DNA from: a bacterium | Lineage (GTDB): Bacteria > Zhuqueibacterota > Zhuqueibacteria > Oceanimicrobiales > Oceanimicrobiaceae | DNA: 19,669 nt | NCBI GenBank assembly: GCA_046757025.1 | Contig: JBHHXN010000095.1 | Coordinates: forward strand, 1 to 19,669 | Direction of reading: 5' to 3' | Part shown: positions 7,428-19,669 of the stretch, in pieces | Layout of the letters: every line of letters begins with the position of its first letter | How positions within the stretch are numbered: position 1 is the first letter of the stretch | Translations under genes and position numbers: made by a program | The notes under the pieces: model-generated | Database searches by the model: none | Told to the model about the DNA's origin: nothing | The model's input: only the letters and a program-made list of their open reading frames with translations

Positions 7428-7577
7428 TAGTGTCCGTCCGTAAACAGATTTTTTTGTCATCCCCGCACTCTTTGAGCGGAAAACCATGGGGCAGTTAGCT
7501 ACGAGATTCCCGATAAGCTTGTCCCTGCATTCCGTTTGCAGGAAGCATTTGGGAATGACGATTTCGGATGGACACGA
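7428..7577. mobile_element. MITE-like palindromic element, copy B
   Basis: TAGTGTCCGTCCGTAA (7428-7443) and TTTCGGATGGACACGA (7562-7577), 13/16 match; colinear with copy A in the same orientation. Confidence 0.75.
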
Positions 7578-7645
7578 AATAGCAAGTTTTGAAGTGATTA
7601 AAGGTTGAAGACCTAAGTGCCAAGGCAAGGTATTCGAATTTCAGA

Positions 7646-10758: not shown

Positions 10759-11325
10759 ATGCATTTTTTCATGTCATCAAAACGCAACAAATTTGATAAA
10801 AAAGATTCGCTGGAATTGGGAGAGCAGGCTGAGCAGGTGTTTGTTAATATCGCGCGCAGCAAAGGCTGGCGGGTGCAGGCTGCCGAGTCGCGCAGCAACA
10901 TCGATGAGCACTGGGATTTCTGGCTTATCAAGGATGAAAAAAAATACCGGGTAGATGTGAAAGCCTGCAAACGAATCCGTCGGCAGGATTCACAGGTGCA
11001 AGACAAATGGGTATGGATTGAATTGCATGGGGTACGAGCAGGGGATAGGGGCTGGCTGTTCGACGGCAAAGCGGACCTGCTGGCATTTGAAACCCGCACG
11101 TCGTTTATTATTGTAAAAAGATCGGAATTGATCGATCTTGTGAACACGTTGTTACTAAAGACCGAGTGCGTAAAAAGTCCGGAAAATGCGCAATACAAAG
11201 TGTACACACGAAAAGGCCGGCCGGACCAATTGACGCTCATTGAAACTGCAAAACTCCAATCCATTCAATATGTGGAATGGCCGAAACCGAAAGACTCAAA
11301 GCATGAAATAAAAAATGGTTATTAA
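10759..11325 (+). CDS. PD-(D/E)XK-fold nuclease-like protein
   Basis: GEQAEQVF helix, HWDFWL, VDVKA and WIEL..GWL motifs. Start may be the ATG at 10771. Confidence 0.65.
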   Translation: MHFFMSSKRNKFDKKDSLELGEQAEQVFVNIARSKGWRVQAAESRSNIDEHWDFWLIKDEKKYRVDVKACKRIRRQDSQVQDKWVWIELHGVRAGDRGWLFDGKADLLAFETRTSFIIVKRSELIDLVNTLLLKTECVKSPENAQYKVYTRKGRPDQLTLIETAKLQSIQYVEWPKPKDSKHEIKNGY

Positions 11326-15373: not shown

Positions 15374-16621
15374 ATGAATGTACTCGTCTTAAACTGCGGC
15401 TCCTCGTCGGTTAAATTTCAAATCATCGAAACCGACCTGGAGTTGATTCAAAAAGATCAGGATCGCTGTCTGGCAAAGGGCGTACTGGAGCGCATTGGCA
15501 GCCACGCCTTGATTACTCTGCAGGCGGAAGGGCAGCCAAAGCAAAAAAAGGATGCCGCTATCCGCGATCACCGCGCGGCCATCGATTTGATTCTGCGCTG
15601 GATCATTTCGCTGGAATCAAAAATTGACCGCATCAATTCGCTGTCGGATATTCACGCCATCGGACACCGGGTGGTGCACGGTGGGGAAAAATTCAAAGTG
15701 TCAGTAAAAATCGACGACAGCGTCATAGCCGGCATCGAAGATTGCATCGAGCTGGCGCCGTTGCACAATCCTTCCAATATCAAGGGCATCCGCGCGGCCA
15801 GAGAGTTGTTGGGTGTGAATGTGCCACAGGTAGCGGTCTTCGACACCGCCTTTCATTCCACCATGCCAGCGACTTCTTTTATTTATGGAATTCCGTACCA
15901 GTTTTATCGACGTTATAAAATCCGTAGGTACGGTTTTCACGGCACCTCCCACCGCTACATTTCTTATCGCTACCGACAGCTTCACAATCTGAAGCTGCAG
16001 GACGTGAGCATCATTTCCCTGCACCTGGGCGGCGGCTGCTCAGCTTGCGCCATCAAAAACGGCGAGTCGTTCGATACTTCCATGGGCTTCACGCCGCTGG
16101 AAGGATTGCTCATGGGTACCCGCTCCGGCGACGTGGATGTGTCCATTTTTGAATATCTCTACCACAAAGAGGGCATGACCTTTTCCGAGATCGACAACAT
16201 TCTGAACAAGCGTTCAGGCTTACTGGGCATCTCGGGCCTTACCGACGATATGCGCGAGCTGCTGGAAGAAGAAGCGGACAATCAGGACCGCCGGGCACGC
16301 CTGGCCATCGATATTTTTTGTAAGCGGGTGAAAAAATACATTGGCGCCTATTTTGCGGAGATGAATGGGGCCGAGGCCGTGGTGTTTACCGGCGGCATCG
16401 GTGAAAACTCCCCAATTATCCGTGAGCGCATTTGTGCGGGCTTGGAAAGTATCGGCTTGATATTAGATACCGAGGAAAATAATCGTATGCATTCGGGCAA
16501 AATTGGCCGGATATCTGAATCTAAAAGTAAATTACACGCTTTTGTCATTCCCACCAACGAAGAGCTGCTCATCGCGCGTGACACCATTCGCGTCATCGAA
16601 AACGCGCCGCGCAGGTGGTGA
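15374..16621 (+). CDS. ackA: Acetate kinase
   Basis: VLNCGSSSVK, GHRVVHGG, LAPLHNP, FDTAFH, YGFHGTSH, MGFTPLEGL.MGTRSGD, FTGGIGEN and PTNEE motifs. Confidence 0.97.
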   Translation: MNVLVLNCGSSSVKFQIIETDLELIQKDQDRCLAKGVLERIGSHALITLQAEGQPKQKKDAAIRDHRAAIDLILRWIISLESKIDRINSLSDIHAIGHRVVHGGEKFKVSVKIDDSVIAGIEDCIELAPLHNPSNIKGIRAARELLGVNVPQVAVFDTAFHSTMPATSFIYGIPYQFYRRYKIRRYGFHGTSHRYISYRYRQLHNLKLQDVSIISLHLGGGCSACAIKNGESFDTSMGFTPLEGLLMGTRSGDVDVSIFEYLYHKEGMTFSEIDNILNKRSGLLGISGLTDDMRELLEEEADNQDRRARLAIDIFCKRVKKYIGAYFAEMNGAEAVVFTGGIGENSPIIRERICAGLESIGLILDTEENNRMHSGKIGRISESKSKLHAFVIPTNEELLIARDTIRVIENAPRRW

Positions 16622-16687
16622 TGGCTGGATGGATTGAATGAAGCATAGCAGGTGGTAGGTGGTAATTTTTTTATCGTATTCAATGTA

Positions 16688-16832
16688 TGACTCTGTTGAT
16701 TAAGTCCATTTTTCCATCAAACTTCATGCTGAGCGGAGTCGAAACATGAATAAAAAACAACAGGTTACGGCCTTTCCCAAATTCACTTCGGGACTCAGCC
16801 TGCAGGTTTCTTCGACTTAATCAACAGAGTCA
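16688..16832. mobile_element. 145-bp MITE with perfect TIRs and 4-bp target duplication
   Basis: TGACTCTGTTGATTAAGTC (16688-16706) and GACTTAATCAACAGAGTCA (16814-16832), 19/19. TGTA directly repeated on both flanks (16684-16687, 16833-16836). Confidence 0.85.
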
Positions 16833-16923
16833 TGTATTGGTTCCCAGTAATTGTGAGCAACGGGCAGCTCAATTTTATTTACTCTAAATTTTAACCCTGA
16901 TAGGGTACGGAGTTCTGGCAGTG

Positions 16924-17049
16924 TTATGCTTTGTTTGCCTCGACAATCCGTATCTCATCTTCAGTAAGGCTGTAGAGTTGATAGACCATCTGGTCGATCT
17001 CACGCTCCAGCGCCTGAACGTTTGCCTGTTTTTGTGGGTTTTTGTTTAT
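16924..17049 (-). pseudogene. Orphan C-terminal tail resembling a type IIG (Eco57I-like) restriction-modification enzyme, copy 1
   Basis: Translates INKNPQKQANVQALEREIDQMVYQLYSLTEDEIRIVEANKA*; preceded in frame by a stop. Confidence 0.7.
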
Positions 17050-17323
17050 TCAGGTGAACCCTCTTGAACTCCAGGCTTCTTGCGCCGAAATTTATCAGCA
17101 GTCCGATTTCTATACCGTATGCTTCCAGGTAATTCATTGCCTGTGCCAAATGAACATCTTCAAGCTTAATGAGCGCCTTCAATTCCACCATGACCAAATC
17201 TTCCACGAAAAAGTCCACGCGACGGGGGCCGATATTCTGGTCTCGATAATAAATCGGCATTTCCTATTCGCGTTGGAAGGATAAGCCTTCGAGATTCATT
17301 TCAATGGCCAGGGCGCGCTGGTA

Positions 17324-17606
17324 TTCAGCCTGTGAAATAGTTTTTCTTTCTGTTTCGTATATATCTTTTTCCATAAGTACTTTTCAAATATTTTTCTCTA
17401 TGTGTGGCATCCTGTTGATTAACACATCCTTCAAAGTAAATTAATTTCACCGGTCTCCTATTAACTGTAGATTTTACTTTGCCGGACATATGTTCTTCCA
17501 ATCTCTTTCGTAGGTTCTTACAATATCCGGTATACCAATAACCGCCACTGCACTCAAGAACATATATGTAGTAAAGGTTTTACATGGTTTTATTTCACAG
17601 GCTGAA
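17324..17606 (-). mobile_element. 283-bp TIR-bounded element encoding only a GIY-YIG nuclease
   Basis: Perfect 16-bp inverted repeats TTCAGCCTGTGAAATA (17324-17339) and TATTTCACAGGCTGAA (17591-17606), exactly at the two breakpoints of the GxxExxY gene. Confidence 0.88.
17325..17585 (-). pseudogene. Small stand-alone GIY-YIG nuclease with a nonsense codon at position 2
   Basis: M*NLYYIYVLECSGGYWYTGYCKNLRKRLEEHMSGKVKSTVNRRPVKLIYFEGCVNQQDATHREKYLKSTYGKRYIRNRKKNYFTG*. YIY..YTG, R..EH and A..RE..LK motifs present. Confidence 0.88.
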
Positions 17607-17691
17607 CCTCCTGAAAACCATTGCCCAGGGTGGAATGCACCCGTATGGCGCACCCGATGATGCGACGAGTCAAGTCACCGTGCAAAAAACC

Positions 17692-17789
17692 GTCTGAACC
17701 TTGATTTTCTTGATGACTCGATTTACCTGATTTCTTTGGATTTTCATTCATCATGTTCATCCTCAAATCCCCATAATCACGGTTCAGAC
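17692..17789. repeat. Palindromic leader of the GxxExxY gene with 9-nt periodic GATT/AATC units
   Basis: GTCTGAACCTTGATT (17692-17706) and AATCACGGTTCAGAC (17775-17789), 14/15 match; internal (A)ATC recurring about every 9 nt. Confidence 0.75.
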
Positions 17790-17864
17790 ACCCTCCACAA
17801 TCCGTATCTCCTCCCCGGTTAGGCCGTAGAGTTCATAGACCATCTGGTCAATCTCCCGCTCCAG
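17784..17864 (-). pseudogene. Orphan C-terminal tail resembling a type IIG restriction-modification enzyme, copy 2
   Basis: Translates LEREIDQMVYELYGLTGEEIRIVEGV*; 17793-17864 is 62/72 nt identical to 16939-17010. Confidence 0.7.
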
Positions 17865-17969
17865 TGGCCGGTGAAGTCAAGAGCCGAGGCCACACTTCTG
17901 TTGGCGTTGTGGAAATGCTTTAGACCCGCACTCCACGACCTTCCCTGCTCGATCAACTTGTGCCCATCT

Positions 17970-18689
17970 TTACTCTGACAGCACTGGCATACTATCCCAT
18001 GTTTTGCCATCCAATATGCGACCAGATTTTTTCTTATTGATGCCGCCCCATTGTTTGAAAAAGAATGGCACATCGTCGCGCAAGCTTTGTTCTTTGATGT
18101 CTTTTACCCATTCTTCTTTCATAGGACGAGCTTTTTTTCCGCTTTCTCCGCCGACAATCACCCAGTGTATGCCATTTAGATCTAAATTAGACAAAGGGCC
18201 TAACAAAGGCTCGCATGAAAGAAATTTGACTTGAGCTCTGGTCCTTTTTATTAGTTCAATTCGGTTAATTACACTTTGGTTTTCAACCGACACACCCATC
18301 CAAATATTGTGGCGCCATTCTAACCAGTCTTCGCTATCATAGTAATAAAGGACATCAGCCCGTTTGGTAAGCACTTGAAATACATGCTGCGGATTATCTC
18401 GCATCACCTGAAAAACACGTTGTATAAACTCAATGGGAATTTCTTCATGAAACAAATCACTCATGGAATTGACAAAAACTATTTGCGGTTTTTTCCAGGT
18501 GTATGGTTTTTGCAATTCTGCTTCATGCAAGGTTAATTGAAATCCATTTTTGTATTTCTCTAAGCCCATGGCTTGTAGACGTGTTGCCATGACTTCGGCA
18601 TAACAATATTTACATCCGGCAGAGACTTTATTGCAACCCGTTACCGGATTCCAGGTCATTTCCGTCCATTCTATTTTTGAATGTGCCAT
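17970..18689 (-). CDS. Phage Gp37/Gp68 family (DUF5131) three-Cys-motif protein
   Basis: SKIEWT..TWNPVTGCNKVSAGCKYCYA, FVNSMSDLFH, FQVLTKR, FLSCEPLLG, WVIVGGESG and FFFKQWGG motifs. Confidence 0.93.
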   Translation of the reverse strand: MAHSKIEWTEMTWNPVTGCNKVSAGCKYCYAEVMATRLQAMGLEKYKNGFQLTLHEAELQKPYTWKKPQIVFVNSMSDLFHEEIPIEFIQRVFQVMRDNPQHVFQVLTKRADVLYYYDSEDWLEWRHNIWMGVSVENQSVINRIELIKRTRAQVKFLSCEPLLGPLSNLDLNGIHWVIVGGESGKKARPMKEEWVKDIKEQSLRDDVPFFFKQWGGINKKKSGRILDGKTWDSMPVLSE

Positions 18690-19579
18690 CAGTTTTCTCT
18701 TTGAATGATTTGACTGGCTATTTTAACAGCGGTTTTATTATTTGAGGCAAAAACTAAATGATAAATTGGAACATTCTTGTGGTTCAACAATACCAGAGGC
18801 TTTTCGGTTGCAAACTTCCAAATAGTCTTAAGTTGCTGAACATACAGTTTGGCAATTTTGTCAATCGGTTTTGTTACTTTTTTAATTCTTTCTTCTTCTC
18901 CAAATAAGGTTTGTTCGGTCTCTTTTTTGTAAAAAAATTCTCTTATTTCTTGTTCTGCAAGTCCAAAGAAAGAGGTTAACTTTTCAATGTGTTCTAATTT
19001 TCCATCTTTATCTAATAGTCGATTCACAATTACACCGGTTGGCAGTAGAATCCATATATCTGTTCGTGTACCCTGTAATGAACAAATGCTCTGCCATCTT
19101 ATTTGCATTCCAAACGGGTCTAAGAAGATCAAGGCCGCATATTTCTTATCTCTTTTCATCGCAGTTGATAATTCCAACAATTGATTGTTGACGTCATCCT
19201 TTCTGAAAATGATATTTGGAGATTCGCTGAATTTTTCTTCTATTCTTACTTGCAAGTTTTTTAAAGTTTTTTTATCCGTATCTATGAAATAATAGTAATT
19301 AAAGGCAAAATTATCTTTAAGGCTTAAGACTCGTTCAGCAGAACCTTTGTAGACGTTGCTTTCCTCACTGATATTCAATTCTTCAAATAACGGCCTATTT
19401 TTGTAAATATCCTCCGTTCTACCCCCACTTCCTGCGAAGCCATCAAAATAGATAGTTTTCCAGTTTGGATGTTTTTTCATAATGGATAAGTAGGACCAAA
19501 CATACTTAGAAAAAGCATCTAATTTTTTCTCGGTCCAACTACCGCCCCAACGGCCAGAAGGTTCTTTTATGCAGTTCAT
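18689..19579 (-). CDS. tcmP: Three-Cys-motif partner protein (SAM-binding methyltransferase-like fold)
   Basis: WGGSWTEKKL..Y, YFDGFAGSG, GSA, FLDPFG and YHLVFASNN motifs; TGATG stop/start overlap with the DUF5131 gene. Confidence 0.88.
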   Translation of the reverse strand: MNCIKEPSGRWGGSWTEKKLDAFSKYVWSYLSIMKKHPNWKTIYFDGFAGSGGRTEDIYKNRPLFEELNISEESNVYKGSAERVLSLKDNFAFNYYYFIDTDKKTLKNLQVRIEEKFSESPNIIFRKDDVNNQLLELSTAMKRDKKYAALIFLDPFGMQIRWQSICSLQGTRTDIWILLPTGVIVNRLLDKDGKLEHIEKLTSFFGLAEQEIREFFYKKETEQTLFGEEERIKKVTKPIDKIAKLYVQQLKTIWKFATEKPLVLLNHKNVPIYHLVFASNNKTAVKIASQIIQREN

Positions 19580-19669
19580 AATTTCGGTTCTATCCAGCCT
19601 GTTTCTTAATGATAGTTTGTATTTAGTCTTTCTGCCTGTTAAGCATTGTGAAGCATGGCTTTTTTAATT

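Follow-up and report, generated by a model that had tools for sequence, protein, structure and literature searches.

Orphan ends of type IIG restriction-modification genes as likely recombination seams in defence-gene arrays

Introduction

Defence islands often lack a mobility gene, which raises the question of how they grow. The window, by which we mean the whole 19,669-nt stretch analyzed here (GenBank assembly GCA_046757025.1, contig JBHHXN010000095.1, from a bacterium of the phylum Zhuqueibacterota), contains two copies of a short coding-like sequence, each following an unrelated gene module. What are these copies, and how did genes come to lie between them? An earlier note, made from the sequence alone, took them for orphan tails of a restriction-modification (RM) enzyme gene and proposed that the conserved 3' end of such a gene is a recombination anchor that stacks or swaps defence-type cassettes, by analogy with Rhs/CDI orphan modules. 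Stubs of this kind would provide a visible, countable seam in defence islands, and a direct test of how they grow.

The window is the complete contig C95 of the assembly (G000), which holds no sequence past position 19669. C numbers denote contigs, G numbers genomes of the phylum, L numbers loci, and X1-X4 contigs of four metagenome runs, all from one study, of which X1 may be the sample that the assembly came from.

Results

Two direct copies of a gene end in the window

The relevant features of the window are as follows.

15374..16621, plus strand: acetate kinase-like (ackA) housekeeping gene, boundary of the array
16681..16839, no strand assigned: MITE-like multi-copy element with inverted arms of 26 bp, outside the array on its ackA side
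16924..17040, minus strand: orphan type IIG tail 2 (core 16939-17010, stop 16924-16926, 41-aa stop-to-stop frame)
17000..17323, minus strand: GxxExxY pseudogene, 3' part (in-frame TAG at 17264-17266; enters tail 2 in another frame)
17324..17606, minus strand: GIY-YIG mini-element, 283 bp (PF01541, E 6e-14; single copy in the genome)
17607..17754, minus strand: GxxExxY (PF13366) pseudogene, 5' part (domain profile matches)
17692..17789, minus strand: imperfect palindrome, arms 17775-17789 and 17692-17706 (14/15), fold z -2.8
17784..17878, minus strand: orphan type IIG tail 1 (core 17793-17864, stop 17784-17786, 30-aa stop-to-stop frame)
17970..18689, minus strand: DUF5131 protein, 239 aa, cargo 1b (PADLOC PDC-M41B/M30B)
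18689..19579, minus strand: tcmP, three-Cys-motif partner protein, 296 aa, cargo 1a (TIGR04474, E 1e-41)

The ORF at 15374..16621 is presumably acetate kinase-like, judging from its sequence motifs. The two repeat copies lie on the minus strand at 17793-17864 and 16939-17010, 854 bp apart, and share 62 of 72 nucleotides. Nine codons differ; five of the changes are synonymous (R, I, L, T and V) and four are replacements (E/Q, G/S, G/E and E/D). Spacing, identity and codon counts were all re-measured and came out as the earlier note had given them. A blastn search of the 6-Mb (5.96-Mb) assembly places the match at E ~2e-18, with the next-best match at E 1.5, and neither blastn nor a translated search of this assembly found a third copy. 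Neither copy is a gene, as the stop-to-stop frames span only 30 and 41 aa and have no start codon before the conserved block.

Mis-assembly does not account for the layout, because a single X1 contig spans 16804-19614 with zero differences; X2 and X3 pieces tile the same region, and together these contigs rule out mis-assembly of the repeat itself. Chance similarity, or mis-assembly of this metagenome-assembled genome, might be suspected from the contig end 90 nt upstream of tcmP and from the branching of the read graph near 19614, but the blastn E value of ~2e-18, the unchanged X1 contig and the presence of the pattern in dozens of genomes leave this explanation with almost no probability.

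Several other elements of the window were observed in passing. The MITE-like element at 16681-16839 is 147-159 nt long, with one 147-nt copy at 100% on C66 and others at 78-93%, and contains a REP-like part of ~46 nt that is far more abundant in the genome. A REP-like intergenic repeat is present twice, at 2106-2221 and 7450-7578, in copies that have diverged (79-83%). A 188-aa ORF at 10759-11325, between acyl-CoA dehydrogenase-like and thiolase-like genes, shows PD-(D/E)XK-like motifs by eye and matches nothing in Pfam or NCBIfam. Rfam gave no match within 16500-19669.

The repeats are ends of two type IIG alleles

The tail 2 peptide has matches in 16 of 41 related genomes. Where a tail match falls in a long frame, it is formed by the last residues of a protein of 790-1190 aa that carries Eco57I and TaqI_C domains; PADLOC identifies one of these loci (L013) as REase_MTase_IIG (E 0). 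Over 35 aa, tail 2 and the C-terminus of an IIG enzyme of 1186 aa share 74% identity. The earlier statement that the peptide resembles a type IIG/Eco57I-like C-terminus was therefore correct, since it ends Eco57I/TaqI_C type IIG proteins of ~1000-1200 aa. Pfam has no model for the tail, and the PDB returned no tail match, only a methylase ending before the tail. Judged by these sequence comparisons, the window repeats are the leftover last 25-37 codons of type IIG RM genes. In L013 (3-1796), L016 (2-2938) and L031 (923-5392), Y1-transposase-like or DUF559 domains were seen in-frame within the helicase/IIG proteins.

Beyond the shared 72 bp, each tail fits a different IIG C-terminal subtype. 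Tail 2 resembles L013 out to 17040; tail 1 extends to 17878 in a subtype like that of L016, the closest full gene, relative to which it carries a 2-nt insertion. Because the tails extend past the 72 bp into different subtypes, they are the ends of two different IIG alleles. The 13 related IIG proteins that were compared show identities of 0.4-0.9 (mostly 0.6-0.9) through residue 720, of 0.07-0.28 over residues 761-1120 and of 0.73 in the last 25 aa. Cover by contigs of the four runs is about zero over the IIG specificity domain and recovers at the tail. The tail is the sole conserved block behind a hypervariable specificity domain of ~360 aa.

No full-length IIG gene was found in the 5.96-Mb assembly. 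Contig C34 ends in 121 intact codons of a PLD/SNF2 helicase (84% nt identity to G012) that run off the contig, and the same helicase precedes IIG in L085/L013 and in L125. An X4 contig, 99.3% identical over tcmP-DUF5131, departs from the window at 19614 and has a tail match upstream of tcmP, within its last 165 letters; X2 and X3 contigs continue past 19669 as G000 does. From the helicase end on C34, the X4 tail before tcmP and a tail stub in G014 (below), the parent IIG gene probably lies in the assembly gap, with allele differences just upstream of tcmP. The ends of C34 and C95 do not overlap, an exact 32-nt search of the metagenome contigs for sequence past the C95 end gave no match, and no bridge from C34 across the gap to C95 was present among the contigs listed from the four runs. 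When the four runs were mapped on the G012 operon, relatives of the helicase-IIG operon appeared at several depths; among the pieces listed, none was linked to tcmP.

Cargo of the window and its decay

The gene labels proposed earlier hold for all three families (TcmP, TIGR04474, E 1e-41; DUF5131, E 7e-101; GxxExxY, TIGR04256/PF13366). TcmP matches the PADLOC candidate PDC-M41A (E 3e-109), and the tcmP-DUF5131 pair has a GC content of 0.37 vs 0.47 for the genome. Relatives of tcmP occur in 6 of 166 other phylum genomes, and the tail HMM found no tail near tcmP in any of these six. In G014 the pair (at 86%) is preceded, ~105 nt ahead of tcmP, by a short tail stub that was recognized by eye only. 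Since the HMM was negative near all six relatives and only G014 has a stub, the pair also moves without a tail. In G134 (L076) a DUF5131-tail junction exists that is unlike the junction in the window. The window array gives the PDC-M41 pair positional support as defence cargo.

The second cargo, GxxExxY, is a dead pseudogene. The GIY-YIG element disrupts it within its signature motif, so that of the tail-[GxxExxY]-tail module described earlier the family label stands and the intact module, with its GIY-YIG insertion and TAG, does not. Thus, the window example is partly decayed. The palindrome begins at the last codons of tail 1, supplies its stop and spans the 5' end of GxxExxY.

The GIY-YIG element is bounded by perfect 16-bp terminal inverted repeats, and its ORF remnant (17328-17579) has no usable start. 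The stop codon lies inside the right terminal repeat, and a target duplication is not clear. An X3 contig joins across the insertion point, with 12 differences in 149 letters, and shows the empty site; its source is probably a related organism. Among related elements, those in 7 of 10 other loci examined have inverted repeats of 16-18 bp. In L226, L227, L228, L230 and L232, relatives disrupt integrase-like and transposase-like genes (labels by eye). Ssn nucleases with NTS/SRM repeats (PMC11893778) resemble the window element in the single-domain GIY-YIG of ~90 aa and the repeat-flanked, IS-like layout. Their repeats are self-folding 20-50-nt hairpins, whereas the window element has one pair of 16-bp terminal inverted repeats and, unlike Ssn/SRM, interrupts coding genes.

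Tail arrays across genomes

We searched 167 phylum genomes with a 14-row tail profile, which matched 66 of them. The 145 tail matches include 84 in frames <150 aa and 48 in frames >=300 aa, where the short frames also take in contig edges and frameshifted parents. Two to five tails occur on 26 of 109 phylum contigs, with no opposite-strand tails. A short tail lies downstream of 9 of the 48 long-frame tails and upstream of none. In 78 extracted loci, tails were classed as orphan (74), parent (23) or edge (16), with some frameshifted broken-parent ends among the orphans (for example in L031, L091, L093 and L201). A cross-prokaryote scan confirmed at least 578 of 612 candidates; the best 80 loci, whose record titles name among others Bacteroidota, Planctomycetota, Chloroflexota, Leptospirales, one cyanobacterium and one archaeon, include 20 with two or more tails and none of mixed strand. 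Tandem tails enclosing variable defence or toxin-antitoxin (TA) cargo, which the earlier note had proposed to look for in other genomes, are thus common both within and beyond the phylum. Parents with at least 2 kb of downstream sequence have a stub within 5 kb in 14 of 53 cases. Tail-to-tail spacing is 260-4896 nt (median 937, n = 61), and the longest iteration is four stubs in one array. Kin share loci, so these array counts are not independent events; L158 was left out as a duplicate of L091. The tail was found in one record of a plasmid collection and in none of a phage collection.

Several loci have variant layouts. In G037 an IIG head is followed by a complete type II RM system and then a tail. 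L018 (5513-8827) is a collapsed locus, with an IIG head, a type II RM system (C5 methylase, Vsr and DUF4928) and a tail, as is L014 (636-1861), with a helicase head and two small ORFs between two tails. In L184 (3302-10471) and in L187, two long IIG frames follow one another and both have a tail at their end; L184 and L189 share a Bpu10I-like RM cassette behind the tail at 97%.

Of 92 between-tail ORFs, seven were excluded (six likely antisense, overlapping or short spurious frames and the window's own), and the remaining 85 were scanned against Pfam, giving 45 with a match and 40 without. The families include DUF3800, NYN, RhuM, TumE, Y1 transposase-like, DUF559, DarTG, Schlafen, HicA, PIN, YhcG, Bpu10I RM and GxxExxY, together with a few non-defence families and one DDE transposase. 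Known systems are represented by DarTG, Bpu10I RM, HicAB, TumE and PADLOC candidates, with RM cargo in L018 and L189 only. A guilt-by-position screen is therefore possible for the 40 unmatched ORFs that lie beside known defence systems. Cargo ORFs are mostly co-oriented (61 vs 15). Pfam found no integrase among the 85 cargo ORFs and one tyrosine recombinase among 118 flanking ORFs (140-620 aa, within 3 kb, cut-off 1e-15), that is, in 1 of 45 array loci, many of which lie on short contigs. The genome's own two tyrosine recombinases are on other contigs, neither on C95 nor on C34.

The same cargo, junction and stub, with homology stopping at the tail end, recur in L135/L097, L021/L087 and L068/L078; L135 and L097 are 80% identical over 885 nt, and their record titles place them in different phyla. 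In L156/L135 and L125/L128, one genome has the cargo after the parent and the other has the same cargo after a stub.

Stub boundaries and divergence

The 5' boundary of the stubs lies 47-515 nt from the stop (IQR 83-165, n = 113). Many stubs have no parent nearby. Identity between a stub and its local parent is 77-96% and never 100%. In 31 stub-parent pairs, 213 of 389 mismatches are at third positions, pN/pS is 0.21, indels occur in two pairs and there are four new stops; simulated neutral decay gave a mean pN/pS of 0.76 and a minimum of 0.56. The divergence of stubs from local parents is thus coding-like; the same pattern would arise from an exact local duplicate that allele replacement later parted from its parent. 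For 24 of 32 stubs the best match is the local parent, a result compatible both with local duplication and with exchange among close alleles.

Duplicated ends at other genes

As controls, we examined genes unrelated to RM. The AckA C-terminus has 114 matches in 99 of 167 genomes of the same phylum, four of them in frames <150 aa; the share of short frames is 58% (84/145) for the IIG tail vs 4% for ackA, figures that are only roughly comparable (profile vs single query). In G000, 12 of 2358 genes have a downstream match to their 3' end, and those inspected are mostly paralogues. Nevertheless, true stubs exist. A dipeptidase 3' end is duplicated (76/77 nt) around BrnT-CopG on C46 (28145-29129, L234), and an OPT transporter end (91% over 136 nt) around TumE on C62 (4584-5672, L235). 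On C8 (63088-64261, L236), two copies (85%) of an end that we take to be from an oxidoreductase flank AbrB/MazE-PIN; one of these ends is fused to N-terminal residues of the same gene. On G020 contig C54 (68-900, L237), the last 76 bp of an ackA-like gene are repeated (72/76 nt, 94.7%) around two small ORFs, by eye a Phd/ParE-type pair. The duplicated-end process is generic, because true stubs bracket TA pairs at non-RM genes, and IIG is a hotspot. Thus, the link to an RM gene holds as a hotspot (58% vs 4%) and not as an RM-specific feature, as three other genes bracket TA pairs.

Discussion

Tails likely mark recombination seams at which defence genes pile up without a dedicated integrase. 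We favor, with moderate confidence, the view that they are dead 3' ends left when incoming DNA recombined into the conserved gene end and shunted the old end downstream. Because the last ~25 codons are the sole conserved block behind the specificity domain, a swap of specificity between alleles would take two crossovers, the left one in the methylase part and the right one in the tail. A donor with the order tail-cargo-stub, either linear DNA or a tail-cargo circle looped out between two tails, could recombine with the resident tail through its stub, which would serve as the right homology arm. The cargo would then join directly behind the gene whatever lay downstream, leaving the gene end intact and pushing older cassettes outward. 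Genome comparison shows that cargo and the stub downstream of it travel together. Host RecA-type recombination should be enough, although the first stub behind a cargo would require one illegitimate or long-target-duplication event. In the window, the order would be the IIG gene in the assembly gap, its tail (tail 0), tcmP-DUF5131, tail 1, the dead GxxExxY and tail 2. The evidence for this mechanism is a static comparison across genera and metagenome contigs. No tail-to-tail joint skipping the cargo was found in the four runs. The conserved 3' end as a recombination anchor, the core of the earlier proposal, is supported by cargo-stub junctions that are common to genomes and by homology that stops at the tail end. 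Against it, stretches of 70-150 nt with 77-90% identity are a borderline substrate for efficient homologous recombination, and the plasmid and phage collections, with the tail in one record and in none, gave no vehicle.

Passive duplication is a serious rival, although we consider it rather unlikely as the main route. Here cargo would insert and, through break repair or template switching, make an exact copy of the resident end; divergence would follow as the functional end was replaced or converted, and the tail would be a passive scar, not a reused arm. The near-identical duplicates around TA pairs at the dipeptidase (76/77 nt, C46) and ackA (72/76 nt, G020) ends, and the best match to the local parent in 24 of 32 stubs, favor this explanation, and Furuta et al. 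2010 (PMC2853133) describe long target duplication by RM units; in one case the target was a type IIG gene, and the duplications often spanned a start or stop codon. Independent duplications would not, however, reproduce the same cargo-stub junction in distant genomes, the two window tails come from different subtypes, and no IIG stub is 100% identical to its parent.

We regard a dedicated trans-acting enzyme inserting cassettes at the tail as improbable, whether an integron-like site-specific recombinase or a cargo nuclease (GxxExxY, RAYT, DUF559 or GIY-YIG) that cuts near the palindrome. Small nucleases and Y1 transposase-like genes are abundant in the cargo, the palindrome starts exactly at the tail 1 stop, and the cassettes are compact and mostly co-oriented (61 vs 15 ORFs). 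Yet stub length varies, the tails show neither folding (z -0.4 and -0.6) nor an attC-type core pair, much of the cargo has no nuclease, and an integrase is present in 1 of 45 loci, with the genome's two tyrosine recombinases on other contigs. Still more improbable in our view is that the stubs are expressed or act as cis-elements under selection, as small helical peptides or as translational couplers for cargo on the RM transcript. This would account for the pN/pS of 0.21, the few indels and the cargo starts that are often 0-15 nt from the tail stop (L135, L156 and L125); it does not sit well with window tails that have no start codon before the conserved block, nor with frameshifts or stops in or beside stubs (window tail 1, L014, L032 and L068; four new stops in 31 pairs), and coupling may be a side benefit that leaves the origin of the stub unexplained.

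Building on the recombination reading, we tentatively suggest, with distinctly less confidence, that a gene plus a dead copy of a conserved end may be an enzyme-free targeting cassette. It could enter any homologous locus whatever its genomic surroundings, cross phyla through restriction-specificity swaps and build polarized, acquisition-ordered defence arrays; TA modules would take the same route at housekeeping gene ends, with IIG as the dominant dock.

How do these arrays compare with known systems? Integrons consist of short co-oriented defence or TA cassettes separated by repeats, with the newest next to the anchor. IIG arrays likewise have short co-oriented cassettes with repeats between them, the newest apparently next to the anchor. 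Unlike integrons, they have no integrase (a tyrosine recombinase in 1/45 loci), no attC hairpin or core and no fixed crossover point. The IIG tail array is not an integron.

Very small TA-only genomic islets without mobile-element genes have been suggested to spread via homologous recombination at flanking core genes (PMC13617665); a term search did not find direct repeats or copies of gene ends described there. In long target duplication (PMC2853133), variable direct repeats of >30 bp form without a mobile-element gene and often span the stop codon, as in IIG arrays, and Furuta, Abe and Kobayashi report one H. pylori case that hits a type IIG gene as well as swaps of TRD alleles in IIG genes. 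There the insert is an RM unit, the event is single and the repeats are mostly near-identical (60/65 and 26/26 in the rows seen). In IIG arrays, the RM gene end is instead the target, up to four stubs occur, identity is 77-96%, and the cargo is mostly non-RM (tcmP/DUF5131 and GxxExxY in the window) and keeps its stub across genomes.

The closest geometry is that of Rhs C-terminal displacement arrays, for which Jackson et al. 2009 (PMC2935791) proposed homologous recombination, with a circular intermediate, that shunts the old end downstream, and that of cdiA-CT/cdiI modules found as orphans (Poole et al. 2011, PMC3150448). In these systems too, an intact gene is followed downstream by co-oriented fragments that differ in 5' length, each have linked genes and mostly lack start codons; the homology of a module extends between successive conserved motifs, and a once-attached module is found displaced in another genome (here L156 vs L135 and L125 vs L128). 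The content differs. An Rhs/CDI fragment is a conserved core with a variable toxin tip, reloadable onto the protein, followed by immunity. The IIG stub holds only the conserved last 15-60 codons, its variable domain lies upstream, and the cargo consists of unrelated stand-alone genes that are never fused as a new C-terminal tip. The analogy drawn in the earlier note thus holds for geometry and fails for content, as the stub is conserved and there is no effector tip or immunity. Our literature search, with subscription journals outside its scope, found no paper describing IIG tail arrays or nuclease-palindrome cargo. The recombination logic is already published for Rhs/CDI and for RM insertions; the IIG arrays are no new machine, and they widen the kinds of arrays known to follow it.
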